Shown one piece after another: positions 23,730 to 62,290 of a stretch of DNA of 64,000 bases; position 1 is the first letter of the stretch; every line of letters starts with the position of its first letter. The position numbers were made by a program, and so were the translations under genes. Under the pieces are notes generated by a model that worked only from the letters and a program-made list of their open reading frames with translations, did no database searches and was not told the DNA's origin. This DNA comes from Acidobacteriota bacterium (GTDB taxonomy: Bacteria; Acidobacteriota; UBA6911; JACQSX01): contig DASXQR010000146.1 of NCBI GenBank assembly GCA_036507075.1, positions 1 to 64,000 of the forward strand, written 5' to 3'.

Positions 23730-23806
23730 GGGCGCTTAGCTCAGTTGGTCAGAGCGCCTGCCTTACAAGCAGGAGGTCGGTGGTTCGAGCCCACCAGCGC
23801 CCACCA
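23730..23806 (+). tRNA. tRNA-Val(TAC)
   Basis: GGGCGCT/AGCGCCC acceptor stem, D arm, CCTGC-CTTACAA-GCAGG anticodon arm, GGTGG-TTCGAGC-CCACC T arm, encoded CCA. Confidence 0.97.
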
Positions 23807-26102: not shown

Positions 26103-26312
26103 ATGAGGGCTGCGCAGAAAAAATCAGCGCGGCGAAAGCCAAATAGGAAGGGGCAACCGCTCCTGATCTACTTCAGTTCTGAGCAAGCGGAGCGTCTTAG
26201 CACCCTTAGTAAAGAACGCCTCGTGCCGAAAGCGAGTGTCGTGCGCTTCGCAGTGGATAAGCTCTTCAGGGAACTCGAGGCGCAGCAGCTCGAACTTCCA
26301 TTGGGCCTATGA
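26103..26312 (+). CDS. Ribbon-helix-helix (CopG-like) DNA-binding protein
   Basis: LLIYFSSEQAERLSTLS...KASVVRFAVD pattern; ATGA overlap with next gene. Confidence 0.75.
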   Translation: MRAAQKKSARRKPNRKGQPLLIYFSSEQAERLSTLSKERLVPKASVVRFAVDKLFRELEAQQLELPLGL

Positions 26313-27265
26313 AACCAAAATTGACGCAGGGACTCAAATCCAATGATTCTCACCCGCTGCCAAAGTTCTCTTTTTCAGGGCATGAAACGTTTGTCTTCCG
26401 TCATGGATGGCTCAAGAAAGCCTACGATGGCATTCAGGAGGACCAGAGGATATTTACTCGTGATGAGGCGCTAATTGTGCTCGGGGTTGGAAAGAATATG
26501 GTCCGGTCGATCCGCCACTGGGCGCTTGCGACTTGCATCCTGGAAGAGGAGCCTGGAACGCGAGGAATGTCACTCCAACCCACCAAATTTGGAGAATTTC
26601 TGTTCGGCAAGCACGACCCCTATCTTGAAGATTTAGCTTCGCTATGGCTGCTTCACTGGAAGATCAGCACAAACCTATTGCGTTGCACTACTTGGGCATG
26701 GGCACTCAACATGCCGACCACCAAGTTCACCAGGGAGTCGCTCCTTGCGCACTTCCAGGAAGTACTCGCATCCCGTACCGACGGCAGAATCAGTGAGCAT
26801 ACGCTGCGCCGCGATATTGACTGCTTTCTTCGAACGTACGTCTCGTCGAAGGTCCAGCACTCTACGATCTTGGAGGACTCTCTCGATTGCCCGTTAGTAG
26901 AGCTGCGTCTTATTGTCGAGAGATCCCCTGGAGATTTCGAATTCCGAAGAGGGCAACAAGACGGACTCCCGTTTGCGATCTTCCTTTACGCTCTCCTCGA
27001 TTTTTGGGAGCGCACAGCATCAGGGCGAGAAAGCCTCGCCTTCTCCGAAATAGCCTACACAACCAACAGCCCTGGAATCATTTTTAAGCTCGATGAGAAC
27101 AGCTTAACGCTCTATCTTGAGCAAGTAGAGGAAACTTCAGCAGGGGCGCTGCTGTATACAGAAACCGCGGGGATTCAGCAGGTATACCGACGGCATGCGA
27201 TCGATGGCGTCGGTCTCCTCTCCAGGTACTACGAGCATTCCAATCCCATTGTACAAGGAGTATAG
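26309..27265 (+). CDS. DUF4007 protein (SspB-like)
   Basis: FSGHETF..R.GWLKK, LGVGKNMVRSIRHW, DPYLED..SLWLLHW. Confidence 0.9.
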   Translation: MKPKLTQGLKSNDSHPLPKFSFSGHETFVFRHGWLKKAYDGIQEDQRIFTRDEALIVLGVGKNMVRSIRHWALATCILEEEPGTRGMSLQPTKFGEFLFGKHDPYLEDLASLWLLHWKISTNLLRCTTWAWALNMPTTKFTRESLLAHFQEVLASRTDGRISEHTLRRDIDCFLRTYVSSKVQHSTILEDSLDCPLVELRLIVERSPGDFEFRRGQQDGLPFAIFLYALLDFWERTASGRESLAFSEIAYTTNSPGIIFKLDENSLTLYLEQVEETSAGALLYTETAGIQQVYRRHAIDGVGLLSRYYEHSNPIVQGV

Positions 27266-27274
27266 CCTTTAACC

Positions 27275-30200
27275 ATGCGGCTCGCCGATGTCATTAGCGT
27301 AACCCCCCGATTCACACGAGCCATTAACCTGGAGCGTGATGCAAATGACCCCGATGCCCTCGACGGCTATATCATCACAAGTACTGCCGAAATGGTATTG
27401 GGCCGCATTGCTGCCACACTGGAAGCACGCGCGATCGAGCACCGAGCTTGGACACTCACAGGTCCGTATGGGTCAGGCAAATCAGCGTTCGCTCTCTATC
27501 TTGCGAACCTCTTAGGGCCGAACCAATCCGTTAGTGCCCGCAAGGCACGGGCTTTGTTGCGCACGCACAATCCTTCGCTTGCCCACGTCTTTCGCTTACG
27601 ACGAGAAGGGTTTTGTCCAGTACTGGTAACTGGAGCCTCGGAACCACTCGCCCCAGCACTACTGCGAGCTTGTGTACGCGATGTTAAGCGATACTGCCAC
27701 GCTGGTCGCCCTCCAACAATTTTGCGTGAGCTCGACACACTCGCGGCACAGGCAGCAGAGGATCAGCCCCTCGGCTCAAGAACTGCAGCCTCGCTAGTCG
27801 AGTTGGCCGAATGGCTTCGAACCGCAAGGCGATCACGAGGTCTCGCCATTATCATCGACGAGCTTGGGAAATTCCTAGAGTTCACTGCGATGAACCCAAT
27901 AGCTGGTGACATTTACGTTCTTCAACAGCTTGCTGAAGCAACGGCACGCTTTAACGAAGCTGGGTTAATAGTCGTGACTGTGCTCCACCAGGCTTTTGAG
28001 GAGTATGCGCGAGGGTTACGGACCACTGTCCGTGACGAATGGGCTAAAGTACAAGGACGATTTGAGGACGTTGCATTCCAAGAGCCTCCAGAAGAAGTTT
28101 TGGGTCTTCTTGCTCATGCAATTCAGCATACCCACAGCAGGACGAATAGGGCGCTCCAGCAAGAGGCGCGCAGAATTGCGGAACAATCATCAGCGCTTGG
28201 CCTTGTACCAGCGGGGATGCAACGTCGCGACTTCATCGAGACCCTAAGTCGGTGTGCCCCACTCCACCCACTCGCGGCAATCAGCCTAGCACGTTTGTGT
28301 AGAAAATTCGGACAGCACCATCGATCTTTATTTACTTTCCTCACATCCCGAGACCCAGCGGGGTTTTCAGAATTCTTGCGGCTACAGTGGGAAGAAAACG
28401 CACGACCTTTTTACCGCCTCCCTATGCTTTTCGACTACGCGATTGAAGCATTTGGCACCACCCCAACACGTGGCGAAACTATCGCGCGATGGTCTGAAGT
28501 CGAACAGGCTTTAGATCGAACGCACCGCAACTCCTGGACAGAGATCGAAATTATCAAGACAGTCGGCCTGTTGAGCACAATCGGTGTAACAGGAGGCCTT
28601 CGACCTTCACGAGATATCCTCACCCTCGCATTGGGCGAGCCAGCAACCACTATTGAGAAGGCCTGCCAACGCCTCACACGCCAATCGGTTCTGATTTACC
28701 GGCGGCACGCTCAGGCATTCGCACTTTGGCAGGGAAGCGATATTGATATCGACGCGAGACTCCAGGATGCGCGCCGAAAACTTCCGCCGCAAACTAGCCT
28801 TGCTGCGAAAATTGCGGAATTGTGGCTGCCACGGCCAATTGTAGCGAAGCGTCACTCGTTCCAGTCGGGCACTCTCCGCTACTTCTCTATGCGGTTTGCT
28901 GACTCCATCACATTTTCTAAGGTGCTGGAGCGACCTGATGACGCCGATGGTCTGCTCATCTACTGCCTACCGAACAATCAGGCTGAACGCGAAATGCTCC
29001 TGGAATTGGCACAGTCATCCTTTGTGCGTGACCGTCTCGACGTCCTTGTGGCTATTCCAGGGTCGTGTGATGCTCTCAACGAAGCGGTGACTGAGTTGGA
29101 GAGGATCTGCTGGGTAGAACTGAACACACCGGAATTGCAAGGCGATGCAGTCGCTCGTCGCGAGATTCGAGCACGAATAGCTGCTGCCAAGGAACGTGTT
29201 TCAATCGAACTTCAGCAACTCTTCGGACCCACCGAGAGGGGGAGAACTCAATGGTACCATCGCGGTCTCCTACAGACGCTTACGACGCCTCGATCGCTAT
29301 CGGTGTTCCTCTCTAGTATCTGCGATGTGGTTTATCCTCACACTCCTCGCTTACATAACGAACTACTCAATCGCCGTACGCTCTCCTCTGCAGCCGCTGC
29401 AGCGCGGCGTAACCTGCTATCGGCGATGCTCACTCGAGCCGGAGAAGCACAGCTAGGGATCAGCGGCACTCCGCCAGAGAAGAGCATGTACGCCTCGGTT
29501 CTCGCAGCCACTGGCATTCATCGTCAAGAGTCCCTGCGCTACGCATTTGGACCTCCATCACCCGCGAGTAGCCTTACTCCAGTGTGGCAGACTATCGAGG
29601 AGTTCTTTCGTACTTGTGAGCTCCGCCGCCGTGGCGTAGGCGAGTTGTTCGAGGTATTACAGAAGCCACCGTTTGGATTGAAAATAGGAGTCATTCCGGT
29701 GCTGTTTTGCGCGGCGCTTCTTGTGCACGATAACGAAATTGCCCTTTATGAAGACCACGCGTTCATTCCCGAACTTACCCCGGACACTTTCGAGCGTCTG
29801 GTGCGCTCTGCGGATAAATTTGAGCTCCGACGTTTTCAGGTAATCGGTGTCCGACGAGAAGTGTTTCGAAAGTTATCAGGCCTTCTTAGCAACACAGAAC
29901 AAGGCCGCGGTGAGCACCTCATCAGTGTTGTTCGACCATTGTACCGCTTCTTCAATCGGCTGCCATCATATGTCCGCCAAACGACAAATGTCTCCCCACG
30001 AACAGCGGCAGTGCGGGATGCACTTTTTCACGCGACCGACCCCGATGTACTACTCTTTGAAGCGCTTCCACGTGCCTGCGGATTTGAACCGTTTCCCCCG
30101 AGCCAGGCACGACTCGAGGAGGTCGAGCAGTTCTTCGAGACGTTGCGTACCGCATTGTCAGAGCTGCAGCGATCCTATGACGACCTGCTTGCGGATCTTC

Positions 30201-30766
30201 AACGACTACTATTTAGAGCCTTTGATGTTCCTGATAGTCGCGGTCGTGAGTTACTGCGCGGACGCGCACAGTCTCTGAGTGAGCACGCGCTCGACGGACG
30301 CCTGCGAGCCTTTATCTTGCATCTCACCGAAGAACTGGACCACGTGGCCTGGATCGAATCCCTCGCGAGTATGGTTATCGGCAAAGCCCCGAAAATGTGG
30401 AACGAGACAGATCGCGCTCGGTATGAAATCGCACTCAGCGAACTCGCTCGGAATTTCCGCCACATGGAAGCCCTCGTATTCGAACTCGGCAAAAATGATC
30501 AGGCTGATGTCGGAGAGTTGCTTCGCATTGGGATAACCGACCGATTCAGCAAGGAGCTCGAAGCAGTCATTCTCGTAAAACCAGAGCAGTGTGGAAAGCT
30601 TGCGGAGGCAATGGTCACACTCGACAGGTGCTTAGAACAGCTTGGACTCGACAGTACCCCCACTCTCGCGCTGGCAAGCCTCGCTACTACAGCAAGAAAA
30701 ATTCTCGCAGAGCTTAACGAGAGTCAACCGAAAACGACTGCATCAACAAAGGCCGCGAAAACATGA
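27275..30766 (+). CDS. Large P-loop ATPase (SspC-like)
   Basis: RAINLERD, Walker A GPYGSGKS, Walker B IIIDELGKFLE, EWAKVQGRF, NELLNR, PPFGLK.G. Confidence 0.85.
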   Translation: MRLADVISVTPRFTRAINLERDANDPDALDGYIITSTAEMVLGRIAATLEARAIEHRAWTLTGPYGSGKSAFALYLANLLGPNQSVSARKARALLRTHNPSLAHVFRLRREGFCPVLVTGASEPLAPALLRACVRDVKRYCHAGRPPTILRELDTLAAQAAEDQPLGSRTAASLVELAEWLRTARRSRGLAIIIDELGKFLEFTAMNPIAGDIYVLQQLAEATARFNEAGLIVVTVLHQAFEEYARGLRTTVRDEWAKVQGRFEDVAFQEPPEEVLGLLAHAIQHTHSRTNRALQQEARRIAEQSSALGLVPAGMQRRDFIETLSRCAPLHPLAAISLARLCRKFGQHHRSLFTFLTSRDPAGFSEFLRLQWEENARPFYRLPMLFDYAIEAFGTTPTRGETIARWSEVEQALDRTHRNSWTEIEIIKTVGLLSTIGVTGGLRPSRDILTLALGEPATTIEKACQRLTRQSVLIYRRHAQAFALWQGSDIDIDARLQDARRKLPPQTSLAAKIAELWLPRPIVAKRHSFQSGTLRYFSMRFADSITFSKVLERPDDADGLLIYCLPNNQAEREMLLELAQSSFVRDRLDVLVAIPGSCDALNEAVTELERICWVELNTPELQGDAVARREIRARIAAAKERVSIELQQLFGPTERGRTQWYHRGLLQTLTTPRSLSVFLSSICDVVYPHTPRLHNELLNRRTLSSAAAAARRNLLSAMLTRAGEAQLGISGTPPEKSMYASVLAATGIHRQESLRYAFGPPSPASSLTPVWQTIEEFFRTCELRRRGVGELFEVLQKPPFGLKIGVIPVLFCAALLVHDNEIALYEDHAFIPELTPDTFERLVRSADKFELRRFQVIGVRREVFRKLSGLLSNTEQGRGEHLISVVRPLYRFFNRLPSYVRQTTNVSPRTAAVRDALFHATDPDVLLFEALPRACGFEPFPPSQARLEEVEQFFETLRTALSELQRSYDDLLADLQRLLFRAFDVPDSRGRELLRGRAQSLSEHALDGRLRAFILHLTEELDHVAWIESLASMVIGKAPKMWNETDRARYEIALSELARNFRHMEALVFELGKNDQADVGELLRIGITDRFSKELEAVILVKPEQCGKLAEAMVTLDRCLEQLGLDSTPTLALASLATTARKILAELNESQPKTTASTKAAKT

Positions 30767-31563
30767 CAGAGTCACGCCATATCTTATGCCTTTCAGGGGG
30801 TAAGGACAGCACGGCGCTTGCCGTCTACATGCGCGACCGCCTGCCCGAAATTGAGTACGTTTTCTGTGACACACAGAAAGAGCTCGCCGAGACCTACGAG
30901 TATCTCGAGCGAGTGCAGGCATACCTCTGCAAGCCGATTCATCGGCTCAACGCCCAGCGTGGATTTGACCATTGGCTGGAGATCTACGGGGGGTACCTTC
31001 CGTCCGCTCGCATGCGATGGTGCACAAAGATGCTCAAACTGAAACCATTTGAGGAGTTCGTGGGGGATGAACCAGTGCTTAGCTACATCGGGATTCGCGC
31101 TGATGAAGACCGGGATGGCTACATCTCAAAGAAGCCAAATATCAAGCCCGTCTACCCGTTCAAAGAAGCCGGAATCGTCGAGGCAGACATCTACCGGATC
31201 CTCGAAGAGAGCGGCCTAGGTCTCCCGAAGTATTACGAGTGGCGCACGCGTTCCGGGTGTTACTTCTGCTTTTTCCAACGTAAGGCCGAATGGGTCGGCC
31301 TCTTGGAACGACACCCTGACTTATTCGAAAACGCAAAGGCGTACGAGAAGATCGATCCCTCACGTGGCGTCAAGTACACGTGGAATGAGCGCGAAAGTTT
31401 GGAAGAACTCGCCATGCCTGACCGCATAGCCGAAATCAAGAAAAGACACGAAACCAACCTTGACGCGGCCTCACCGCAGCCAGGACAAAGGCTCTACCAG
31501 ATCTTCGGGGCTGCGCTTGACGATGAGGATGATTCTGAGCCTTGTCTTATCTGTCACCTTTGA
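30763..31563 (+). CDS. PAPS-reductase-family protein (SspD/DndC-like, short)
   Basis: PP-loop SGGKDS, RWCT..LK, GIRADE, RSGCYFCF, C-terminal CLICH; ATGA coupling. Confidence 0.9.
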   Translation: MTESRHILCLSGGKDSTALAVYMRDRLPEIEYVFCDTQKELAETYEYLERVQAYLCKPIHRLNAQRGFDHWLEIYGGYLPSARMRWCTKMLKLKPFEEFVGDEPVLSYIGIRADEDRDGYISKKPNIKPVYPFKEAGIVEADIYRILEESGLGLPKYYEWRTRSGCYFCFFQRKAEWVGLLERHPDLFENAKAYEKIDPSRGVKYTWNERESLEELAMPDRIAEIKKRHETNLDAASPQPGQRLYQIFGAALDDEDDSEPCLICHL

Positions 31564-31696: not shown

Positions 31697-33493
31697 TTAG
31701 ACGTCAATGTCGGGCACGCGTTGAACCATTTGGGACAAGGATAGCCCCCATTGCGTCCGCAATGTAGAGTAGAGTTCCTGGTTTGCTTTGTCGTCGTCCA
31801 TGGCCTCACCTTTGGCGTAAGCGACGATCAACAAATCGAGACCAATTTGGACGATCCTGGCGATTTCACCCAATTCTTCTTCTGTCATCGCCCCGCGAGT
31901 GGTGTCGTCGGAGTGTAGCCGAGCGGCGGCGAGAACCTTGGCGTAGATCTTTGAGAAGAACGGATGCTTATTGTTGTACGTCACGATGATCTTTTCGCCA
32001 AGGTGCTCTGTTGAAAAGAACTCATTTCCCGGCCATTGATCGTCGATAATAGAAAATGGCAGGGACCCAAAGCGCTCCCGTAATTCCTTGCGTGTCTTTT
32101 TCTCGTCCAGGGCTTTTTCCGGCTCTTCTTGAGCAAGATTCTTTGCCGTTTTGTCTGCGAGATCATCGAGTCGGCGCTCACGCTCCTCGGCGGGAATATC
32201 GCGTCCCGCTCGCGGTTTCACAGAGGTTTTTTCCGCTTCTGCAGCGATTTCCTCTGCCGCGTTATGAACGCCTTTCTGCTGTTTCTCCGCATTCGCTGTC
32301 TCGCCCCACTTCTTTCGAATACGGCCAACCAGGGTTTCCATAACAGGTCGAATGATCTTACGAAGGTCGTGACGCAATTCCTCTACGGGTTCCACGCCGC
32401 GTTTAACATTACGAACTCGAAACGCTTCGTCGAGCACAGGGTCAAAGGATATTTCAATCCCAATAAACCGTGCAATTTCACGCACACCATCGGGGTAGAA
32501 CCGCGGAATGATGTCAAAGAAAATTTCCCGATTCGCACGAACCACCGAAAGGGGCTCGTTTTCAATAATACGGCGTTCGCGATTGAACGTAGTCTCAGCG
32601 CCGGAGCCCCTCTTTGGTCTCCACTGTTCGGGCAAGAGTGTTATTCTGACCTTAATCGGTGCCATCACGGTTGGATCGCTAGCGAGCGGCCAGGGAACCT
32701 CTTCGTCAAATTCGAGTGTGGCTTTGGGATCGTCGGCAAAGCGCGAGTCGAGCAGGTAGAGGGGATCGTGCGCCGCTACGGGCGCACCGTTAACCTCAAT
32801 GACTCTTCCGCCGGCTAGAAAATACCTATAAGTGCGCGCGACCCACTTGATCAAATCAGTCTGGACGCGATCAATGGTTCGAACATCCTTTGCCTTCAGT
32901 GCCTTGCGGGAACTCGCTTGTGGTGCGACCGAAAGACGATCGCATTTCGACCAGACGACGAGCGTACCTGAGGTTTTCGAGTTCGGTAAATCAGCAAATT
33001 CTGCTGGTAGATCGCGCGCTTCGGGGGTAATCATCTGTGTGAGAGTGCCCTCCGCGATTTCATCCAAGTCTATGTATGTGTAGAGAAAAGGGCCGCTGGA
33101 GTTGTCGCGGCTGTACACCTCGACTCGACGGCATTGGCTGATGGCGCCAAGAGTACCGCCGACACCGAAACGCCCCATACCCTTTCGGCTGTTATACCGT
33201 GTCGATTCACCAAGTACTAGACACCTCTGCAAAACGTCCGCCGGCATGCCAATACCGTCGTCACTAATCGCGATCTTATCTACAACCGTCAGCGATTCTG
33301 ATTTCTTGCCTTTTTGGATTGTTTGGAGGGTCTCTATTAAACGCACCCTTATCTCGTTTGCGCCTGCTTCGAACGCGTTGTCAAGAGGCTCACCAATCGC
33401 CGCTTCCAGCGTGTAGCCGGAGGAGCGGAGTGAGTTTAGAGCTTTGTCGACACGAATTAACGGCACCGGTTCGACTAATGTTGTTGTTGCCAT
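31697..33493 (-). CDS. MORC/MutL-like GHKL ATPase
   Basis: EPLDNA, DDGIGM, GRFGVG and GTLVVW motifs; AAGGAG RBS. Confidence 0.88.
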   Translation of the reverse strand: MATTTLVEPVPLIRVDKALNSLRSSGYTLEAAIGEPLDNAFEAGANEIRVRLIETLQTIQKGKKSESLTVVDKIAISDDGIGMPADVLQRCLVLGESTRYNSRKGMGRFGVGGTLGAISQCRRVEVYSRDNSSGPFLYTYIDLDEIAEGTLTQMITPEARDLPAEFADLPNSKTSGTLVVWSKCDRLSVAPQASSRKALKAKDVRTIDRVQTDLIKWVARTYRYFLAGGRVIEVNGAPVAAHDPLYLLDSRFADDPKATLEFDEEVPWPLASDPTVMAPIKVRITLLPEQWRPKRGSGAETTFNRERRIIENEPLSVVRANREIFFDIIPRFYPDGVREIARFIGIEISFDPVLDEAFRVRNVKRGVEPVEELRHDLRKIIRPVMETLVGRIRKKWGETANAEKQQKGVHNAAEEIAAEAEKTSVKPRAGRDIPAEERERRLDDLADKTAKNLAQEEPEKALDEKKTRKELRERFGSLPFSIIDDQWPGNEFFSTEHLGEKIIVTYNNKHPFFSKIYAKVLAAARLHSDDTTRGAMTEEELGEIARIVQIGLDLLIVAYAKGEAMDDDKANQELYSTLRTQWGLSLSQMVQRVPDIDV

Positions 33494-33552
33494 AACAGTT
33501 ATCTCCTTATTTGGTGTGTACGTCTCCGAGAATCGTTGTTTAGAGTAGCGAC

Positions 33553-33759
33553 TCAGTGCCAGTACCTATCGGCCTTCCTTTGGATACGCCGCGTCATCTG
33601 ACAGACGGCGGGGCGAGAGATCCCAAAGGCTCGGGCCACCTGTGCCTGTGAAAAACCCAGCGAGAATGCCGCAACAAGGACGCGCTCTCTGGAGGTTAGA
33701 AAGTTGGAAATAAAGGATTTAGCGCAAACTGTGCGCTCGAGGGTTGATAGGGTTCTCAT
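33553..33759 (-). CDS. Small sigma-70 region 4-like HTH protein
   Basis: LTSRERVL..GFSQAQVARAFGISRPAVCQ..RRI; GGAGG RBS. Confidence 0.75.
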   Translation of the reverse strand: MRTLSTLERTVCAKSFISNFLTSRERVLVAAFSLGFSQAQVARAFGISRPAVCQMTRRIQRKADRYWH

Positions 33760-34216
33760 TTGTCCTCCGTGCTCTCTGTCCGCCTACGGCTGGTCAGAGC
33801 GGAATGTGCGCCAGGAAATTCCGGCGACACTGCCTCTTCTTATAACACCGGTAAGGGTCATTTGTTAACTGGTCATTGAGAAAACTTTCGCAACTGTTAG
33901 GGTTATTCTTGAATTCCCGCTTCCCGAACGCTCACGCATCGCCTGCGCGTACAACCAACAAACTCTTGCAAAGAAGAAACCGAGCAAAACAGGTAATAAC
34001 AGACTACGGTTATAGCGCGCATTGAGGGATTCATCATCCCGGGAAGACAAAGTTGCTTTCACAACCAAAAGAATTCTGCCGAAAAACATTCACACCGTTA
34101 ACTATCTGAGCACGATTCTTTACACTGGTGAATGTCAACGCGTGACCGTCTGCAGACGCAACTGTTGAGATTAGCGTGCAAAGGCTCAAAGCCAGCACCG
34201 GAAAGGGGAATTGTAA

Positions 34217-34393
34217 ATGGCAACTTTCGTGATCTACGAAGATACACGGAAAGAGTACAGGTGGCGCTTGGTGTCGAACAATGGAAGAATCATCGCAGAT
34301 TCTGCCGAAGGATACAGCACCAAGTCCGGCTGCCGTACCGCTGTGGACCTCGTAAAAACGGAGGCACCAACGGCCCACGTCGTAGAAAAATAA
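34217..34393 (+). CDS. DUF1508 / YegP-family small protein (not in ORF track)
   Basis: MATFVIYEDTRKEYRWRLVSNNGRIIADSAEGYSTKSGCRTAVDLVKTEAPTAHVVEK; AGGGG RBS. Confidence 0.88.
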   Translation: MATFVIYEDTRKEYRWRLVSNNGRIIADSAEGYSTKSGCRTAVDLVKTEAPTAHVVEK

Positions 34394-34404
34394 CGCTCGG
34401 CTCG

Positions 34405-34434
34405 GGGGCTCGGCAACCTGTTGAGCCCCCGGGT
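34405..34434 (+). terminator. GC-rich hairpin after the DUF1508 gene
   Basis: cgggggctc...gagcccccg stem; no clear U tract. Confidence 0.45.
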
Positions 34435-34508
34435 GACCGCCACAAGAACGGAAAGGTGGTCTGGAGATTTTCGACAGGAACTGAGAAGGACAGCGACTCA
34501 ACGTGGAA

Positions 34509-34536
34509 TTGACACTAACTTTGAAACGCGTACACT
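34509..34536 (+). promoter_or_regulatory. Sigma70-type promoter of the caspase-helicase gene
   Basis: TTGACA-16 bp-TACACT upstream of ATG 34555. Confidence 0.6.
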
Positions 34537-34554
34537 TTAATTACTTGTCTTGAT

Positions 34555-37500
34555 ATGTCCTTCAAAAGCGTTTTTATCGGCATCGACCGATACCAATCTT
34601 CCCTGATTTCCAATCTCTCGTGCTCGGTACGTGACGCGAAGGCGCTTCACGGGCTTTTCGGTGACGCCTTCGGCACCTCGGAGTCGCTTCTGCTGACTAA
34701 CGAACTAGCAACTCGTTCCGCAATTCTCAAAGGCATCCAGAATCTTCAACTGGCGAGCCCTGACGATGTTGTGGTTATCGGCTTTTCTGGCCATGGGTCG
34801 GACTCGCACCACCTGATTACATACGATGCTGATCCGCTCACTCTCGACGCAACAGCGATACACTTGGACGAACTCACAGATCTATTTTCCAGAATCCCCG
34901 CAGCAAATCTAGTGTTACTACTTGACTGCTGCTTCGCTGGTGGCGCTGGGTCGAAGGTCTTTCATGCTCCTGTGGCAGCAAAGGCACCAGCCTCAGCAGA
35001 GGCACTCTTAAATAAAATTAGCGGGAGAGGGCGGATAATATTCACCGCCGCGACTGCTGACCAAGAAGCCATTGAAGATCGGCGGCGAGGCCACGGCTTG
35101 TTTACATTTTATGTTATCGAGGGCCTCCGAGGTGCACCGGAAATCGTGAAAGCCGGCAGTATACCGGTATTGTCTCTACTGCAATTTGTCTCTCAATCAG
35201 TTATCGAAGCGGCACGGCAAATTCGGCATCAGCAGGAGCCAACCGTTAAGGGTGTCGTTGAAGGCGAATTGAGATTTCCAGTCCTCGCGCCCGGACCGAT
35301 TTACAAAGGATTTTTCCCCGAGTGCGCAGCCACGCCGGTCGGGCCAGCCATCAGTGATTTGGTTAATTTTGGATTTCCGCCGCCAATCATTCAGATTCTG
35401 CAAACCGCGATTCCTTCTCTTAATGAGCTTCAGCAGGACGCGATCAATAAAGCAGGTCTATTCGACGGGCAGCATCTGGTCGTTTCCGCGCCAACCACGT
35501 CTGGTAAGACAATGATTGGCGAACTGGCTGCGCTGCACGGTTTTACAAAAGGCGAGCGCAGTTACATGTTGTTGCCGCTGAGGGCGCTGGTCAATGACAA
35601 ATACGACGAATTCACGGCCAAGTATGGTTCCTTTGGTCTTCGAATAATTCGCTCAACAGGCGAAATCGCCGACGACAACGACTCCTTACTCCGTGGTAAG
35701 TTCGATATCGCATTCCTAACGTACGAGCGATTTGCAGCTCTCGCTCTAACCGTCCCTCACATTATGCGCCAAGTTGGCGTGATCGTTATCGACGAAGTGC
35801 AAATGATCACAGACCGTAATCGGGGCGCCAATCTTGAATTTGTGCTCACATTACTAAAAGCGCAACGGCTTTTGGGCATCGAGCCACAGATGATTGCTCT
35901 CTCAGCAGTGATTGGTGACACGAACGGTTTCGAATCGTGGCTTAATGCGCGCCTCCTGTACACGGAGAAGCGACCTGTGCCGCTTGATGAGGGCCTCATC
36001 GACATGAACGGAGCGTTCCGCTACGTGTCAGAGGCGGGTAAGGAAGAAGTCATCAATAATTATGCGCGACCTGAGTACCGAAAGGGGTCATCGCAGGACA
36101 TCATCATTCCACTTGTGCGGCAGTTGGTCGCTGGCGGAGAGAAGGTTATCGTCTTTCGTGAGACAAAGCCGATTGTGCGAGCAACAGCTGAGTATTTGAA
36201 GAATAACTTGGGTCTTTCTCAAGCGATCGAAACTTTAAACCTGCTTCCTATGGGTGACCCATCTGCTGCGTCGGCACAACTTCGCGGGTGCCTGGAGCAC
36301 GGTGTTGGCTTTCATAACGCCGATCTTGATCGCGAGGAGCGACAGGCTATTGAGGCGACTTTTCGGGATCCGGCCAGCTCTTTGAAAGTGCTTGTTGCGA
36401 CCACTACTCTGGCGATGGGCGTGAATACACCCGCTTGGTCGGTGGTAATCGCAGGTCTTGAGCATCCCGGTTCTCCGTACAGCGTGGCCGAATATAAGAA
36501 TATGGTCGGCCGAGCCGGCCGGCTCGGGTTCACCCCTAAAGGGAAGTCATTTTTAGTTGCGCCGACCCAGGCCGATGCTTACCATCTGTGGAATACATAT
36601 GTTCTGGGCAAACCTGAATCGCTGGTTTCGCGGTTTTCAGATCAGGAACCATTGTCGCTCGTCTGCCGCGTACTCGCAACCGCGGCAGCTTCAAAGGCCA
36701 ATAGTCTCTCCGAACAGGAGCTTGTAGACTTCATTCATTCGACCTTTGCGGCGCATCAGAAAGGACAGTATCTTGACGCCGCGACAGTCTCAGGAACTTT
36801 AGAGCGACTCCTTGGAGGGGGGCTGGTCGAACGGATCGACGACCGCTACCGATTGACTGAACTGGGTAAGGTAGCTGGAGAATTGGGTATTCAGGTCGAA
36901 AGTGTTGTGCGCATTTCACGATCCCTTCGTGGGCTCTCCGCTGGCGAACTAACAGATACCGTCTTATTGGCAGCCGCTCAGACTGCCGTGGAATTGGATG
37001 AAGTGATTTTTCCCGTTCATAGAACATCGACAAAGGAACGGGATCGCTGGCAGGGTGCCGTACGCCAACAGCATTTGCCACCCTCGGTGGCAAGCGAACT
37101 TCGGGCGATTGACGGTCGTGGCTACACCGCGCGATGTAAGCGTCTGTCGGCCGTCTTGATGTGGATCGACGGTGTAGAGCTCAATCGAATGGAGGCCTCA
37201 CTCTTACTGCACTTGCCTGGAGACAATGCAGCTGGACCGATCCGTGCATCGGCGGAGCGAACGCGCGACTTGATCGGGGTCGTCACTCGAATTGGTACAC
37301 TGGTGTCTACTAATGAAGGTTCTGAACCTAGTAATCAAATCGACCAACTTAGCATTCGACTGGAACTGGGCATTCCTGTTGATATGTTGTGGCTTGCAAA
37401 AGAGCTCAAGCGAAGTTTAGAGCGTGGAGACTACCTTGCTTTGCGGCGAGCTGGTTTAACTACCGTAGAAGCAATTGACGCGGCTGACAAAAGTGCCCTG

Positions 37501-37632
37501 GCGCGTGTAATAACGGGCGATGTAAAAATCAAGCGGATTCGCGAGGCTATTGAAAGGATTAAGCAAGCCAAACCTGTAAACACCGATGATCTGCCAATGC
37601 CTCTGCCAGCAATGCGGGCGGGCGAAACTTGA
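34555..37632 (+). CDS. Caspase (peptidase C14) fused to Ski2/Hel308-like SF2 helicase
   Basis: N-terminal FSGHGS and LDCCFAG dyad, GHGLFT; helicase APTTSGKT, DEVQ, LSA, ATTTLAMGVN, NMVGRAGR. Confidence 0.9.
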   Translation: MSFKSVFIGIDRYQSSLISNLSCSVRDAKALHGLFGDAFGTSESLLLTNELATRSAILKGIQNLQLASPDDVVVIGFSGHGSDSHHLITYDADPLTLDATAIHLDELTDLFSRIPAANLVLLLDCCFAGGAGSKVFHAPVAAKAPASAEALLNKISGRGRIIFTAATADQEAIEDRRRGHGLFTFYVIEGLRGAPEIVKAGSIPVLSLLQFVSQSVIEAARQIRHQQEPTVKGVVEGELRFPVLAPGPIYKGFFPECAATPVGPAISDLVNFGFPPPIIQILQTAIPSLNELQQDAINKAGLFDGQHLVVSAPTTSGKTMIGELAALHGFTKGERSYMLLPLRALVNDKYDEFTAKYGSFGLRIIRSTGEIADDNDSLLRGKFDIAFLTYERFAALALTVPHIMRQVGVIVIDEVQMITDRNRGANLEFVLTLLKAQRLLGIEPQMIALSAVIGDTNGFESWLNARLLYTEKRPVPLDEGLIDMNGAFRYVSEAGKEEVINNYARPEYRKGSSQDIIIPLVRQLVAGGEKVIVFRETKPIVRATAEYLKNNLGLSQAIETLNLLPMGDPSAASAQLRGCLEHGVGFHNADLDREERQAIEATFRDPASSLKVLVATTTLAMGVNTPAWSVVIAGLEHPGSPYSVAEYKNMVGRAGRLGFTPKGKSFLVAPTQADAYHLWNTYVLGKPESLVSRFSDQEPLSLVCRVLATAAASKANSLSEQELVDFIHSTFAAHQKGQYLDAATVSGTLERLLGGGLVERIDDRYRLTELGKVAGELGIQVESVVRISRSLRGLSAGELTDTVLLAAAQTAVELDEVIFPVHRTSTKERDRWQGAVRQQHLPPSVASELRAIDGRGYTARCKRLSAVLMWIDGVELNRMEASLLLHLPGDNAAGPIRASAERTRDLIGVVTRIGTLVSTNEGSEPSNQIDQLSIRLELGIPVDMLWLAKELKRSLERGDYLALRRAGLTTVEAIDAADKSALARVITGDVKIKRIREAIERIKQAKPVNTDDLPMPLPAMRAGET

Positions 37633-37663
37633 TAACTTCCGGCGCAAATAGTCCGGGCCCGAC

Positions 37664-39220
37664 TCAAGCTGCTATACTCAGATCATCATTCTCCTCCTGA
37701 CCCCGAACGGCAATAGGGGTTTTCTGCAAAATCATTTCAATTTTGGGGATAAGCTCGTCCCAAGTTCGAAGTCTGTCCCGAAGTGGGCTGCCAGTTGAAT
37801 ATTCAAAGCGATTTGCGATGAGATCAAAGGGAACTTTTAGCATAAACTCCGCATTTTTTCCGATCACGAGCCGGTTCGAAGTCAGGTTTTCCACCAAATC
37901 GCGCTTTTTGTCCAAAATTGCAGTTTTGTACGCAGAATAAGCACTTCCGGCGAGTTCGAGGAATCGCGCAAGCCGATCGTGAAGCGAGGTCCCACCACGG
38001 CTTAAATCCACCAATTTTTCCTCCACATCCCTCTTCGTTCCCAGAAGAGCGTTTTTGCGCTGAACGAACGTGTCCTGATCGACGAGGCGGTCAATGTAAG
38101 CGTCGGTCAGGCGGGCGAAACGCTCCTGAATTGCCGACAACTGCAGGTTCAGCGAATCGATCAGTTGTTTTTGGAGACGGATCCAATCCGCCTTGATCTG
38201 CGAGAGTTTTTGCCGGAGATAAGCCTGCTCAGGGGCGCTGAACCGGAGAAGGAATAATTTCTGAACCAGGCTGTTTTCCACCGCCTCTTCCCGAATGGCG
38301 GTAGTTGGACAAGAAGCGGTATGGCAACGGTAATAGATATGCCCTTTCTGCTTTTCTCCGACCAGCGAGTAATTACATAGCTTGCATTTGAGCAAACGCC
38401 GAAACAGGAACTCGTGCTTTTGACTGCGAATGTTGAACTTGCCATCCAATACTGACTGGACGCTATCAAACAGGGCTTTCGACACGACCGGCTCATGCAC
38501 GCCGGGGAAATGTTCCCCGGTACGGCGCAAACGTATGACGCCGGTGTAAAACGGATTGCGGAGAATCGTTGAAAGCCCGTTGCGGGAAACTTCATTGCCC
38601 CGGCGGGTGCGCAGTCCGAGGCGAAAAAGCTCGTCACCTAAAGTATCTAGATTATGTCTGGCGGTTGAGTAAAGCTCGAAGGCCCGCCGAATGAGCGGCG
38701 CTCGCACCGGGTCAGGACTTTTTGGTTTGCCGGGACCAATGTCCGAATAGCCGAGAGGGGCCTGCATGGGCAGCAGCCCTTGGTTGAGCCGCCCATAAAA
38801 GCCCTTGCGCGTCTCTTCCCGCAAATTACGAATGTAGTCGGCTGCAACTACGGCCTGAATGTCGGCCGAAAGACGACCGCCACGCGAACGCAGGTCCAGA
38901 CTCTCGTTGGCAAAGAAGATCTCTATGCCTTGGTCGATGAGTTCACCAAGATCCGCCCAGTCTTTGAGGTTGCGCGCCCCTCGGTCGATTTTGTGGATGA
39001 TCACGCCAGCGGCGCTGCCCCGGCGAAGCAGCTTAAGCATTCTGTTGAAAACCGGTCGGCCGCGCTTGGCCGCAGTTTCGCGTTCCTCAAACCATTGGCA
39101 CACGGTCAAATTGTTTCGCGCGGCGAAGCGCTCGATGGCGGCGCGCTGTTCCTGCAGCGAAACGCCGCGTTCGCCCTGTTTGGGCGTAGAGACGCGAATG
39201 TAGGCAAAACATTGCCGCAT
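37664..39220 (-). CDS. Large serine recombinase
   Basis: YIRVST..Q, KIDRGARN, recombinase domain, zinc ribbon CxxC...YYRC. Confidence 0.93.
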   Translation of the reverse strand: MRQCFAYIRVSTPKQGERGVSLQEQRAAIERFAARNNLTVCQWFEERETAAKRGRPVFNRMLKLLRRGSAAGVIIHKIDRGARNLKDWADLGELIDQGIEIFFANESLDLRSRGGRLSADIQAVVAADYIRNLREETRKGFYGRLNQGLLPMQAPLGYSDIGPGKPKSPDPVRAPLIRRAFELYSTARHNLDTLGDELFRLGLRTRRGNEVSRNGLSTILRNPFYTGVIRLRRTGEHFPGVHEPVVSKALFDSVQSVLDGKFNIRSQKHEFLFRRLLKCKLCNYSLVGEKQKGHIYYRCHTASCPTTAIREEAVENSLVQKLFLLRFSAPEQAYLRQKLSQIKADWIRLQKQLIDSLNLQLSAIQERFARLTDAYIDRLVDQDTFVQRKNALLGTKRDVEEKLVDLSRGGTSLHDRLARFLELAGSAYSAYKTAILDKKRDLVENLTSNRLVIGKNAEFMLKVPFDLIANRFEYSTGSPLRDRLRTWDELIPKIEMILQKTPIAVRGQEENDDLSIAA

Positions 39221-39283
39221 AAAAAGGAAAAATATGGCGTTAAAAGGCGGGTTCTTGGAGGCCCGGTCGCAGGTTACCTCGGA

Positions 39284-39460
39284 TTACCAAGGAACGTCAA
39301 AGTTGTTATCCCCAGAGCGCCCAGCCTCGAGTCGCTCAAAGATCTGCCAAACCACGGTTAAATAACGCTCCAGGTTTTCTTCGGCTTCCTTGAGTTGCTG
39401 GTCGTTAAGCTCGGGATAAAGCTCGCGCAAGGTTGGAACCTTATCAGGGGCCTTGCTCAT
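39284..39460 (-). CDS. Small hypothetical protein upstream of the serine recombinase
   Basis: MSKAPDKVPTLRELYPELNDQQLKEAEENLERYL..., helical, co-oriented with the recombinase. Confidence 0.65.
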   Translation of the reverse strand: MSKAPDKVPTLRELYPELNDQQLKEAEENLERYLTVVWQIFERLEAGRSGDNNFDVPW

Positions 39461-39964
39461 CTGGTCAACATAAACGAGATTGCAAGCGTTGGATAGACGG
39501 GAAAACTTGAATCGCAGTACCCCCTGAATCCGAATCAAGTTTTCCCGCCTAGAAAATTTTCCCGCAGAGCGCGATGATCCGAGCCGCAATGCATCCCATT
39601 GACTACATCCTGGAATTTCTTTATGAAGCAATTCGAATTATTCTTGTCGAAGAGCTGCATGTTCACGTGCGCTCGAAAATGCTGCGCTGTCGGCGGCGGC
39701 GCATGCGCCGTGTCGCGCCACTTCCCCTACATGAGCGACGACGGTCTGTGCAATGTTATCTACAGGCGCAGTGCCGAATTCGCTTGCGCCAGCACTTTGA
39801 GCTGCTTCGCGATCCCTAGCCAGATTCAACTTTTCCCTCCTTTTTTCAAATCCGCCGGGTTGCTATGGTGAACGTACACGCCGAAAGCTTCCCACTTTGA
39901 GTTCTGCGCCTTGAGTACCTCCTGGTCCGCAGGGCGGAGAGTTCAATTTGAATCGGAGGGAGAA

Positions 39965-40396
39965 ATGAGAATCAGGGAAATCTCGGTCAGGTATGCGGCA
40001 AGCGAAGTTAGGTTGGAGGAAGGCGAAAGCTTTAGAAATTCCCGACAGGTCTTTGAGGCGTTCAGGCAGTTGGCACTGGAGCCGGTCGAAGTCTTCAGAG
40101 TCATCCTTTTGGACGGCAAGAACCGAATGCTCTTTTATGAGGACATCAGCCGGGGCAGTCTAACCGGGGCCTTGGTTCATCCGCGCGAAGTCTTCTGGTC
40201 AGCCATTCACCACCGAGCCGCGGCCATTATTTGCCTTCACAATCATCCTTCGGGTGATCCTGAGCCGTCGGCGGAAGATCGTGAAATCACAGCCCGGCTG
40301 AAGCAAGCAGGTGACCTGCTCGGAATTCGGGTGCTCGACCACATCGTAATCGGCGACGGTTGTTACGTCAGTTTCCAGGATCGCGGCGAACTTTAG
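39965..40396 (+). CDS. radC: RadC-family JAB domain protein
   Basis: VHPREVF, HNHPSGDPEPS.ED, VLDHIVIG; GGAGG RBS. Confidence 0.93.
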   Translation: MRIREISVRYAASEVRLEEGESFRNSRQVFEAFRQLALEPVEVFRVILLDGKNRMLFYEDISRGSLTGALVHPREVFWSAIHHRAAAIICLHNHPSGDPEPSAEDREITARLKQAGDLLGIRVLDHIVIGDGCYVSFQDRGEL

Positions 40397-40547
40397 AGCT
40401 TGCTGGATTGCGGTGATAAGGCGGGTGTTAAGGCGAAAAGCTTGCACCCGCCGTCGCTTTTTCAACCGGACCCCCTACTCGCATTCAAGTTTTCCCGCCT
40501 TTTACCAAATCCTCTGAACCTATACATTGAGAATTAGCAAAACCAAT

Positions 40548-40844
40548 ATGAAACAAAACACAAATTCACATCCAAACCAACTCGTGGTTTACCGAATGCG
40601 GATGAAATTCAGTCAAAGCCGCGTGGCCCGACTCTTGGGCCACAAAAATGAGGAGATGCTGTCCCGTTACGAGCACGGGCGATCCTTGCCGCCCTTGCTG
40701 ACCGCCTTGAAACTGGAAATTATCTATCGCGTGCCGGTGGCTTTCCTCTATCCGGAACTTTACGAAACTTTGCGTAATCGAATTCGCGCCGAGGAAGGGA
40801 AACTCTCCGTCCGGGGTCTTCAACAAGCCCTGCCCTTGAATTAA
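40548..40844 (+). CDS. XRE-family HTH regulator
   Basis: FSQSRVARLLG...LSRYEHG...P.L.TALKL. Confidence 0.85.
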   Translation: MKQNTNSHPNQLVVYRMRMKFSQSRVARLLGHKNEEMLSRYEHGRSLPPLLTALKLEIIYRVPVAFLYPELYETLRNRIRAEEGKLSVRGLQQALPLN

Positions 40845-40855
40845 CCGCAAGACAA

Positions 40856-41149
40856 ATGACCAAGATTCTTGATCGTCTCAGCTCGCCACAAGACCGCTTC
40901 CACCCGCAGACGGCCAAAGAGTTTTTCGCGTTGCAGCTTGCCCGCAAGCTGGGAGCCCTGGACCGAGTTGGTCACTTTGTGTTGCTGGTCGACCAATATT
41001 CACAAGGAACACTGCTGCGGATCTACCGGAGGGCTCGCAAGACTCAGCAAGGAACAACGGGGCTGGCAGACCGCTTCGAGGCGGAATTGGCGCATATCAA
41101 CCACAAGGAGGAAGGTAATGACTCACAAGTTAGCCGCCATCAAGGTTGA
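40856..41149 (+). CDS. Hypothetical protein
   Basis: ORF in a tightly packed operon. Confidence 0.6.
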   Translation: MTKILDRLSSPQDRFHPQTAKEFFALQLARKLGALDRVGHFVLLVDQYSQGTLLRIYRRARKTQQGTTGLADRFEAELAHINHKEEGNDSQVSRHQG

Positions 41150-41582
41150 GCGGCGAAGCGTGGCGACGGCCGTCTTTGTCGGCGACAGACTGGACTACGT
41201 GCAACGACGCCAACTTTCATCTGCGCCATCAAAGGCCGAAGCCAGTGCCGTGGGTTTTGTCAATTGGACCGTCAATACGTTTGAAATTCACTCGGTCGCG
41301 CTTGAGGCCGTAACCAATGGAGACGTGCGCCGCGTCCAACTAACAGAATCGATCCTGAAAATGCTTCGGGAAAACGGCGTCCCCATCTGGAAATTGTCAA
41401 AGCAGGACATGTTTGCCGCTTACGGAATCCCACCGCTTCGCACGCGTCGGGAGTTGTGGAAAGTAATTCTGTCGATCTGGCCGATTCTTGACCGCGGTGA
41501 GCAAGGAAACGACGGCATTTTGGACGCCGCGGCGTTGGGTCTGCTGGTTGCTACTGAACGCCTGCTCCTTACAGAGACCTGA
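41118..41582 (+). CDS. Hypothetical protein, possibly degenerate RuvC/RNase H fold
   Basis: AGGAGG RBS; beta-rich N-terminus, VALE and LDAAALGL resemble RuvC topology. Confidence 0.55.
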   Translation: MTHKLAAIKVERRSVATAVFVGDRLDYVQRRQLSSAPSKAEASAVGFVNWTVNTFEIHSVALEAVTNGDVRRVQLTESILKMLRENGVPIWKLSKQDMFAAYGIPPLRTRRELWKVILSIWPILDRGEQGNDGILDAAALGLLVATERLLLTET

Positions 41583-41611
41583 TGGAATGAACGTGAGAGG
41601 TATTAAACAAA

Positions 41612-42424
41612 ATGACATCTTCCATGGTTGGACCCTTGAGTTACATCGGCGGCAAGAATCGCCTGGCCAAACGAATCATCGCCCTGTTTCCCGAGCACAC
41701 GACCTATGTGGAACCGTTTGCCGGCGGCGCGCAAGTGTTCTTTCACAAGGAACCGTCGCCCGTAGAAGTGCTCAACGACTTGGACTTTGAAATCGTAAAT
41801 TTCTTCCGCGTCTGTCAGTGGCACTTTGACGAATTGGTTCGCTATTTAAGATACATTCTGATCAGTCGAAAGTGGTACGAGCTGCTGTCGGCGACAAATC
41901 CAGAAACATTAACTGACATTCAGCGGGCCGGACGCTTCTTTTATCTGCAGAAGAATTGTTATGGAGGCCTCGTCGTCAACCCAACGTACCACTACGGCGT
42001 CATCAAGCCGTCAAACTACAATCCCCGGCGCATAACTGAAATAATCCAGAAAACTCACGAGCGGTTGCAAGGCGTTCAAATCGAATCGTTGCCGTACGAA
42101 AAGATCCTGGAGAAATATGACCGAAAGACCACGTTGTTCTATCTGGATCCGCCATATTGGAATCGCCGATTGTACCGTTTCAATTTCAAGGAGGAAGATT
42201 TTATCGAACTGGAAAGGCTCCTGCACGGCGTGAAAGGCAAGTTCATCTTGTCTCTGGATGACAGACCAGAAGTGCGGCAACTTTTTTCCCGCTTCTCAAT
42301 CACCGGAATTGAGCTGTCCTACACGGCACAGAGAAAAAGCGGAAACCGCTATGGAGAGGTCCTAATCATGAATTACGGCTCAGCTTCTCATCGGGAACCG
42401 CGCGCGACTGCCGCACAGATTTAG
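41612..42424 (+). CDS. Dam-family (D12 class) DNA adenine methyltransferase
   Basis: YIGGK..LA, YVEPFAGG, EVLND, FYLDPPY. Confidence 0.92.
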   Translation: MTSSMVGPLSYIGGKNRLAKRIIALFPEHTTYVEPFAGGAQVFFHKEPSPVEVLNDLDFEIVNFFRVCQWHFDELVRYLRYILISRKWYELLSATNPETLTDIQRAGRFFYLQKNCYGGLVVNPTYHYGVIKPSNYNPRRITEIIQKTHERLQGVQIESLPYEKILEKYDRKTTLFYLDPPYWNRRLYRFNFKEEDFIELERLLHGVKGKFILSLDDRPEVRQLFSRFSITGIELSYTAQRKSGNRYGEVLIMNYGSASHREPRATAAQI

Positions 42425-49918: not shown

Positions 49919-49994
49919 GAGCAAGCTTTGTGAAACCCCAAGGAAGTTGGACTCCGAGGCTAAACCTGCTTAAAAGACTACGGTGTTGCTCACA

Positions 49995-51263: not shown

Positions 51264-51275
51264 CATCTAAACTTC

Positions 51276-62245: not shown

Positions 62246-62290
62246 CTTACAAGCAGGAGGTCCGCGGTTCGAGCCCGCGAGCGCCCACCA
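62246..62290 (+). repeat. attR: 3' half of tRNA-Val
   Basis: CTTACAAGCAGGAGGTCCGCGGTTCGAGCCCGCGAGCGCCCACCA; 4 differences from 23762-23806. Confidence 0.92.

Follow-up and report, generated by a model that had tools for sequence, protein, structure and literature searches.

A caspase–Hel308-type helicase fusion encoded by a single accessory gene is a candidate DNA-triggered immune protease in bacteria

The subject of this analysis is a 64,000-nt stretch of DNA from an Acidobacteriota bacterium (GenBank assembly GCA_036507075.1, contig DASXQR010000146.1, positions 1 to 64,000; the window), in which one open reading frame (ORF) on the plus strand, 34555..37632, encodes a 1025-residue protein that joins a caspase-like C14 protease to a Hel308-type superfamily 2 (SF2) helicase. 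The gene is very probably a conflict or defence gene, a variant of the type of immunity in which a helicase sensor is coupled to a protease effector. Because its family is widespread, stands alone and sits near anti-phage genes, the protein is probably a new one-protein immune sensor. We assign a probability of roughly 55% to the reading that it is a stand-alone sensor-effector, in which engagement of DNA by the helicase would switch on an Arg/Lys-specific protease and stop infected cells.

An earlier reading of this DNA, made from the letters alone (the sequence-only reading), had placed the His and Cys codons of a C14 protease at 34792 and 34930 and had recognized a complete SF2 helicase with GKT, DEVQ and GRAGR motifs. 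Both codons are exactly where it put them, and Pfam Peptidase_C14 (PF00656) matches residues 6–231 (E = 1.5e-13, 51.4 bits against a cut-off of 21.4). The three helicase motifs are all there, at residues 317–319, 413–416 and 652–656, and Pfam matches DEAD at residues 291–453 (E = 4.4e-22) and Helicase_C at residues 581–658 (E = 1.2e-11). The gene start given in that reading, 34509, is instead the first base of a promoter-like hexamer; the ATG start codon lies at 34555. The sequence-only reading also credited the gene with its own promoter. The motif exists, but sites of this kind are no more frequent than chance predicts, with 3 seen in the region 33400–39400 versus 3.7 ± 2.0 in shuffled sequence. 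The promoter is therefore plausible but unproven.

The N-terminal domain resembles caspases in both predicted structure and active-site sequence. A separate AlphaFold2 (AF2) model of residues 1–266 has a predicted local distance difference test score (pLDDT) of 88.8 and a predicted template-modelling score (pTM) of 0.89. A Foldseek search with this model retrieved the MALT1 paracaspase (E = 1.3e-11) along with GSU0716 and caspases-6, -8, -3 and -9 (E-values ranging from 1e-11 to 6e-9), and a profile of the domain matched the metacaspases MCA2 (8.4e-6) and AtMC4 (5.3e-5), as well as GSU0716 and Yca1, among PDB sequences. In the profile alignment with metacaspases, SGHG falls on SGHG and the D-C-C-F-x-G segment falls on the D-x-C-H-S-G active-site strand. 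The His and the Cys are each conserved in 63/63 sequences, comprising the query and the 62 covered representatives described below.

An acidic residue two positions ahead of the catalytic Cys is a mark of Arg/Lys-specific metacaspases and paracaspases, and the fusion protein has Asp124 at this position relative to Cys126. By analogy, D124, E174 and an invariant K/R143 suggest a specificity for basic (Arg/Lys) P1 residues. The intersubunit region (residues 121–160), a flexible loop that separates the large and small subunits, is modelled with a pLDDT of 58–69, falling below 50 at residues 128–133, and carries K/R at positions 134 and 143 in 76/76 sequences amid otherwise variable loop positions. 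The same comparison suggests that the loop contains an autoprocessing site at one of these basic residues. Metacaspases, orthocaspases and MALT1 have the same caspase fold as this domain, the same SGHG and D-x-C motifs and, in their Arg/Lys-specific members, the acidic residue two before the Cys. Unlike those C14 proteins and the caspase-like effectors of type IV Thoeris, the fusion protein has no TIR, CARD, Ig-like or EACC1 module (NCBIfam caspase_w_EACC1 scores 79.5 bits versus a cut-off of 140), and activation of its caspase domain would, unlike that of known C14 proteins, come from a helicase in cis.

The helicase half is closest to archaeal Hel308. The NCBIfam model PRK02362 (archaeal Hel308-type) aligns with residues 275–1006 over profile positions 9–710 of 739. 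The best PDB sequence matches are the archaeal Hel308/Hjm entries 2zj2 (8e-54), 2va8 (1e-49), 9b15 (1.5e-48) and 2p6r (7e-46), at 160–186 bits, followed by ASCC3 (3e-38), the helicase domain of Pol-theta (1e-34) and Brr2. Scores against the NCBIfam Hel308 equivalogs are below cut-off (301 versus 887 bits for NF002654, which is PRK02362; 231 versus 1200 for NF040935; 221 versus 1216 for NF001308). Because equivalog-level scores are not reached, we place the helicase in a sister family of Hel308 and do not regard it as an orthologue.

Structure prediction gives a similar picture. The AF2 model of the whole fusion protein, built on 76 relatives, has a pLDDT of 87.6 and a pTM of 0.81, and Foldseek aligns its C-terminal 760 residues with Hel308 chains of 653–700 residues (9b15, 2va8, 2zj8 and 2p6r) with target-normalized template-modelling (TM) scores of 0.81–0.88; the corresponding range for the Pol-theta helicase is 0.69–0.80. 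All five Hel308 domains (RecA1, RecA2, winged helix, ratchet and helix-hairpin-helix) are present. The GKT, DEVQ and GRAGR motifs are invariant in 76/76 aligned relatives (for motif II this refers to D, E and Q) and, with motifs I, II and VI intact, the helicase is predicted to unwind DNA in the 3′→5′ direction. Five-domain architecture, fold and intact helicase motifs are features in common with archaeal Hel308/Hjm and the Pol-theta helicase. Unlike archaeal Hel308, the fusion protein comes from bacteria, is accessory and carries a protease, and it is 24–26% identical to the matched Hel308 structures.

HamB and the AbpAB helicase, which the sequence-only reading cited as Ski2-like sensors, are more distant, and the helicase is not HamB-like. 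Among PDB sequences, HamB (8vx9_B) matches at 1e-20 and 76 bits over two partial stretches and AbpB (8zue_B) matches at 1e-5 and 27 bits. The PADLOC HamB models match the helicase core with at most 100 bits. No model in PADLOC v2.0.0 spans the fusion protein, and the best match, PDC-M23B (113 bits), covers residues 570–754.

The similarity to Hel308, ASCC3 and Pol-theta, the nearest solved relatives and all of them repair helicases, also fits a different function. The protein could be a DNA repair or replication helper on mobile elements. Its helicase would set stalled forks going again or act on intermediates of recombination, in the element or the host, and the tethered protease would remove DNA-blocking proteins, such as DNA–protein crosslinks or a stalled replisome or recombinase. 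The fusion would then resemble eukaryotic crosslink repair, which pairs a protease with a helicase. The Hel308 fold, the presence of the gene on plasmids and beside recombinases and integrases, and RadC nearby in the window and in one related locus (L008) all agree with a repair helper. We nevertheless consider this reading unlikely, for reasons of inheritance and gene neighbourhood that are given with those results.

The fusion belongs to a large family. A word-indexed protein search in which 7999 candidates were scored identified 1290 proteins at E ≤ 0.001, and precomputed annotation records PF00656 in 108 of the best 120 of these (47–80% identity). The other 12 comprise five truncated and seven full-length proteins, three of the latter showing SGHG and DCC. 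With the helicase part as sole query, an exhaustive search produced 13,112 matches at E ≤ 0.001, of which 1,150 reached E ≤ 1e-30. Among the best 150 representatives (50% identity), 62 are 989–1199 residues long with the helicase starting at residue 247–320. A hidden Markov model of the family's caspase domain matched 71 of 147 representatives (P0121–P0267), 62 of them over more than 200 of its 266 positions, and the caspase–Hel308 fusion is therefore kept in at least 62 clusters at 50% identity.

Next in closeness are relatives of 880–950 residues, Hel308-like proteins made up of the helicase alone plus an extension at the C-terminus. One protein (P0131) has the same Hel308-type helicase (43% identity) behind a different N-terminal domain of 247 residues, in which Pfam finds no match and which by eye looks possibly cyclase-like. 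This protein is a sign that the N-terminal module may be exchangeable on a helicase of this type. A regular two-gene form was considered and rejected: the 71 short proteins that match the caspase part at E ≤ 1e-10 are mostly fragments that bear the helicase start or lie on short contigs. Judged from these sequences, the fusion is the ancient, selected and standard form of the family. Conservation extends in part to the C-terminal tail, where LP[MLIV]P occurs within the last 22 residues of 27/76 relatives and PxLPxY(E) occurs in a second subclade (12/76 by a strict pattern); these motifs may be docking peptides for some host factor.

Relatives are encoded in at least 173 of the 185,579 species genomes scanned, a lower bound because the scan relied on two peptide patterns. 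The 80 loci that were kept come from more than 12 phyla and include Acidobacteriota, Verrucomicrobiota, Planctomycetota, Chloroflexota, Bacteroidota, Alphaproteobacteria, Myxococcota, Bdellovibrionota, Patescibacteria, Bacillota, Actinomycetota, Elusimicrobiota, Omnitrophota and others. Culturable carriers include Sphingobacterium spiritivorum ATCC 33861, Chryseobacterium, Pedobacter, Bradyrhizobium, Afipia, Nitrobacter winogradskyi and Acaryochloris marina. In its own genome the gene is present in one copy, and it was found in 0/60 related genomes, from the same family to the same class (56 of the 61 searched are at least 90% complete). The gene is accessory and patchy across phyla. These counts, together with carriage on plasmids and integrative elements, establish an accessory rather than a core-genome context, in keeping with the sequence-only reading. 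They also argue against a repair helper, for which vertical inheritance would be expected in some clades.

The fusion gene is carried at ≥80% coverage by 17 plasmid records, in every one of which it is annotated simply as a DEAD/DEAH box helicase, and by 0 of 50,697 phage records, 12 of which match the helicase core only. Absence from phage records and presence on conjugative plasmids and integrative elements would suit a factor directed against plasmids or competing elements rather than phages. Such a helicase would track 3′→5′ on transfer single-stranded DNA or rolling-circle intermediates, and the protease would destroy proteins attached to the incoming DNA. Prokaryotic Argonaute (pAgo) proteins target plasmids, and pAgo systems neighbour the fusion gene in two loci (L016 and L026). 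We regard this reading as very unlikely; the absence from phage records means little because defence genes are generally rare in records of virulent phages.

Plasmid carriage also bears on the possibility that the gene is an addiction or programmed-cell-death module, in which the helicase domain would hold a caspase toxin in check until loss of the element or general stress released it. Bacterial orthocaspases are most often given such a role, and in the sections consulted of two domain censuses such proteins are treated as cell-death proteases (PMC3501461, PMC7475262). The gene does reside on plasmids and integrative elements, and a Fic/VbhA toxin–antitoxin pair is found near it on a Hymenobacter plasmid (L084). 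A cell-death module is nonetheless highly improbable in our view, because tblastx of the flanks found no antitoxin-like conserved small neighbour and because a complete, strongly conserved 760-residue helicase with all ATPase motifs intact is more than simple inhibition needs.

ORFs were called in the 80 loci, a single ORF covering the fusion in 76 of them (not in L011, L030, L037 and L069), and the genes within four positions on either side were clustered together with those of the window. The sole large neighbour clusters (15–18 loci) belong to one alphaproteobacterial element, present in some 17 loci, in which a small DUF2158 gene precedes the fusion gene and a tyrosine integrase gene follows it. 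With 15 redundant loci collapsed, the commonest neighbour was a serine recombinase, which lies within four genes of the fusion in 11 loci, the window among them. Other neighbours, among them ThiF-like and helix-turn-helix (HTH) proteins and unknowns, recur in 2–5 loci. When 700-nt flanks were compared by tblastx for small genes masked by the ORF caller, the largest shared cluster comprised 6/57 loci upstream and 3/62 downstream.

No conserved partner gene was found by ORF clustering, by Pfam searches of 38 recurrent neighbours or by tblastx of the flanks. The window neighbours that might have been partners (DUF1508, the GHKL ATPase, HTH and SspBCD) recur in none of the 80 related loci. Because neither clustering nor the flank comparison revealed a conserved partner, we conclude that the fusion gene stands alone. 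The lack of a conserved repair partner further weakens the case for a repair helper.

The surroundings of the gene are rich in defence functions. The window holds SspB, SspC and SspD at 26309–31563 (E = 3.5e-92, 0 and 4.6e-116), a GHKL ATPase, a D12 methyltransferase and a VWA–PP2C–kinase triad, and the defence-rich island described in the sequence-only reading is borne out by these genes. Across 61 non-redundant loci, the four genes on either side of the fusion gene gave 235 neighbour ORFs of at least 150 residues, the first 114 of which (28 loci, L001–L033) were scanned with PADLOC. At E ≤ 1e-20, 20/114 neighbour ORFs in 13/28 loci were recognized. The matches include the two class II pAgo systems, each with a nuclease, a cyclic-oligonucleotide-based antiphage signalling system (CBASS) cyclase with a two-transmembrane effector, Gabija GajAB, HmaC, a type IIG enzyme with DrmD and several candidate systems. 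With the same caller and threshold, 14 random 12-kb regions of the window's genome gave 2/108 ORFs in 2/14 regions. The enrichment that the sequence-only reading had proposed looking for is therefore present relative to this single-genome control (Fisher's test, p = 6e-5 for ORFs and p = 0.049 for loci). The annotated surroundings on plasmids give a matching picture, with a Tn3 transposase, a PLD protein and the Fic/VbhA pair in Hymenobacter and NB-ARC and TIR proteins in Acaryochloris. A repair helper would not account for neighbours that are enriched for defence genes and not for repair genes.

The sensor-effector reading, which we favour, can be formulated as follows. The helicase would load on 3′ single-stranded tails, forks and damaged or branched DNA, as archaeal Hel308 and HamB do, and DNA of this kind would build up during phage or plasmid replication. 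With ATP, the helicase would move 3′→5′ on the DNA, and its engagement would lift the latency of the tethered protease. Activation could follow either of two routes: caspase-type proximity dimerization of two molecules on one DNA, or a conformational change of the helicase. Autocleavage at the invariant K/R143 loop would be a likely part of activation. The active protease would then cleave after Arg or Lys in widely conserved host or invader proteins and so halt growth or invader replication, an outcome that would amount to abortive infection. Since the protein functions without a partner in more than 12 phyla, its substrates would be conserved cellular proteins, invader proteins or the fusion protein itself.

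A decidedly unlikely alternative assigns the motor a transport function. The fusion would be a DNA-guided translocating protease. Its Hel308 motor would move the caspase along the single-stranded DNA of an invader in the 3′→5′ direction, and proteins that the caspase meets, or that are covalently attached to the DNA end, would be cut, with a conjugative relaxase, a phage terminal protein, a recombinase or a single-stranded DNA-binding protein filament as candidate targets. The target would be set by DNA position rather than by a recognition partner, and a translocating protease of this kind would explain how a partnerless gene could serve more than 12 phyla, because position on the DNA would pick the target. 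If it exists, the Hel308 family, so far regarded as missing from bacteria, would gain a bacterial branch.

Several points weigh against the sensor-effector reading. Its defence function is deduced from architecture, conservation and genomic context, and its Arg/Lys specificity and loop autocleavage rest on a resemblance to metacaspases and paracaspases. The helicase is nearest to the DNA-repair helicases Hel308, Pol-theta and ASCC3, not to the immune helicase HamB, and a repair or replication role for a mobile element is just as compatible with the helicase fold. Residence on plasmids and integrative elements could mean that the gene benefits the element and not the host. In 15/28 loci there is no PADLOC-recognized neighbour at E ≤ 1e-20, and 2 of the 13 positive loci have reverse transcriptases only, perhaps from group II introns. 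The defence enrichment is supportive but not conclusive, because the control is a single genome, the loci are related and the sample is small. The frame is split into two ORFs in L036, L039, L058 and L072 and truncated in L020; these copies may be pseudogenes or assembly errors.

Comparison with known systems indicates where the fusion differs. Like Hachiman and its variant AbpAB, it couples an SF2 helicase related to Ski2/Hel308 to a destructive effector. Unlike Hachiman, in which the effector is a nuclease in trans, it has a protease in cis, and its N-terminus is a caspase domain, unlike the HamA-binding helical bundle of HamB. In the sections of the HamB study drawn on here, HamB is described as a Ski2-like helicase, biochemically Hel308-like, that senses DNA damage and releases its effector, and Hel308 is described as absent from bacteria (PMC12278908). 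No HamA (DUF1837) or gasdermin was found among 43 window ORFs searched with Pfam or 24 searched with PADLOC, in agreement with the sequence-only reading, and no HamA was found among the 114 neighbour ORFs of the 28 related loci. Membership in Hachiman or AbpAB was rejected on the grounds that HamA/DUF1837 is missing from the window and the related loci scanned and that the similarity to HamB is weak.

The nearest known systems in logic are HamMAB and Canu. According to the parts of the two reports used here, the protease-bearing Hachiman system HamMAB (10.1101/2025.07.28.667249) and the caspase–nuclease system Canu (PMC13069673) defend against phage. As in HamMAB, a trypsin–metallo-β-lactamase (MBL) form of Hachiman, and in Canu, the fusion would place a protease within a helicase- or caspase-based antiphage pathway in which proteolysis is the switch. 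As far as those parts describe them, HamMAB and Canu are multi-gene systems in which a trypsin-like–HamA fusion or the CanA caspase with its Ig-like domain activates an adjacent dedicated pronuclease. The fusion, unlike these, joins the protease directly to the helicase, and no MBL-fold or other pronuclease, nor any other neighbour, is conserved beside it. Type IV Thoeris needs a TIR-domain signal producer beside its caspase-like effector, and no TIR domain was found in the window ORFs scanned with Pfam; on an Acaryochloris plasmid (L085), NB-ARC and TIR proteins lie near the fusion gene, the TIR protein two genes away and in this locus only. The features that define Hachiman, HamMAB/Canu and type IV Thoeris are therefore missing, both catalytic sets are intact, and the sequence-only reading's view of a single-gene fusion outside described systems is upheld.

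Its statement that no system with this fusion has been characterized holds for function and not for architecture. Proteins with caspase and helicase domains appear in domain censuses dated 2012–2021: in the portions consulted, 12/671 prokaryotic metacaspases have helicase domains (PMC3501461), three cyanobacterial orthocaspases have DEAD and Helicase_C (PMC8283722), and DEXDc is among the accessory domains (PMC7475262). A search of the full-text literature, with supplements outside its scope and a named mention there possible, found no functional or defence study of the architecture. Should the fusion prove to act in defence, it would be the first example of immunity built on a Hel308-type helicase wired to a caspase in one chain, uniting a nucleic-acid sensor and a death protease without an adaptor, second messenger or partner gene. 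It would then be a compact and readily transplanted system and a simple model for DNA-driven caspase switching, and the existence of accessory helicases of Hel308 architecture in bacteria would bear on how HamB, Hel308 and Pol-theta are related in evolution.

Table 1. Positions in the window of the fusion gene, its parts and the associated mobile-element features
Feature	Position	Strand	Basis or remark
Caspase–Hel308 fusion gene (P0001)	34555..37632	+	1025 aa, single ORF
C14 caspase/metacaspase-like protease domain, residues 1–245	34555..35289	+	Pfam PF00656, AF2, Foldseek, profile match
Catalytic His80 (SGHG; FSGHG)	34792..34794	+	aligns with metacaspase SGHG; 63/63 family sequences
Catalytic Cys126 (D-C-C, second Cys)	34930..34932	+	aligns with catalytic-Cys position of MCA2 and AtMC4; 63/63
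p20/p10 intersubunit loop, residues 128–160, candidate autoprocessing site	34936..35034	+	low pLDDT; basic residues 134 and 143; cleavage inferred
Short linker, residues 246–265, invariant F254-P255	35290..35349	+	family alignment
Five-domain Hel308-type SF2 helicase, residues 266–1006	35350..37572	+	PRK02362, PDB sequence matches, Foldseek
Walker A, G317-K318-T319	35503..35511	+	invariant, 76/76
Motif II, D413-E414-V-Q416	35791..35802	+	D, E, Q invariant
Motif VI, G652-R653-A-G655-R656	36508..36522	+	intact; kept in alignment of 76 relatives
Disordered C-terminal tail, residues 1007–1025, (D/E)LPMPxP motif	37573..37629	+	pLDDT 45–55
Promoter-like site TTGACA-16-TACACT, 19 nt before ATG	34509..34536	+	10/12 consensus matches
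Large serine recombinase, convergent to fusion gene	37664..39220	-	Pfam Resolvase + Recombinase + Zn_ribbon_recom
tRNA-Val, left border of low-GC island	23730..23806	+	GC drops from 0.58 to 0.52 beyond
25-nt copy of tRNA-Val 3′ end (2 mismatches), candidate right border	62266..62290	+	0 expected in 100 shuffles

The tRNA-Val gene and the copy of its 3′ end (Table 1) flank ∼38.5 kb of DNA with a lower GC content, which climbs again past 62 kb. This stretch, which is probably a composite integrated island, contains SspBCD, the fusion gene, two recombinases, a TraD-like/Replic_Relax pair and the VWA–PP2C–kinase triad. Two other acidobacterial loci share genes with it. L009 has in common with the window the recombinase (50% identity), a 115-aa ORF, an HTH gene and the D12 methyltransferase (60%), a module that occupies 37664–42424 in the window; in L036 the recombinase, the HTH gene and the D12 methyltransferase recur with the fusion gene and the small ORF does not. 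This recurrence points to a small mobile module made up of the recombinase–HTH–D12 methyltransferase set and the fusion gene.

Other genes of the island were noted in passing. No SspA, SspE or SspFGH was recognized beside SspBCD in the window. The GHKL ATPase, a 598-aa protein (HATPase_c_3, with a weak match to MzaB) encoded at 31697–33493, follows directly after SspD in convergent orientation and might be the missing restriction partner of SspBCD. Immediately upstream of the fusion gene are a gene for a 58-aa DUF1508 (YegP-like) protein at 34217–34393 and then a GC-rich inverted repeat. The triad at 49983–54016 consists of a VWA protein with an NYN-like N-terminus, a PP2C phosphatase and a Ser/Thr kinase in a row, with weak PADLOC kinase matches only; we take this row to resemble a TerY-P triad.

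To the left of the island, a 64-nt copy (92%) of the tRNA-Val leader and 5′ half is present at 19523–19586. Three tandem 35-nt repeats precede this copy (region 19420–19586) and a fourth precedes the intact tRNA (23618–23767), with a gene for a TonB-type outer-membrane protein (19775–23491) between the partial and intact copies. It looks as though a second insertion duplicated the 5′ half of tRNA-Val.

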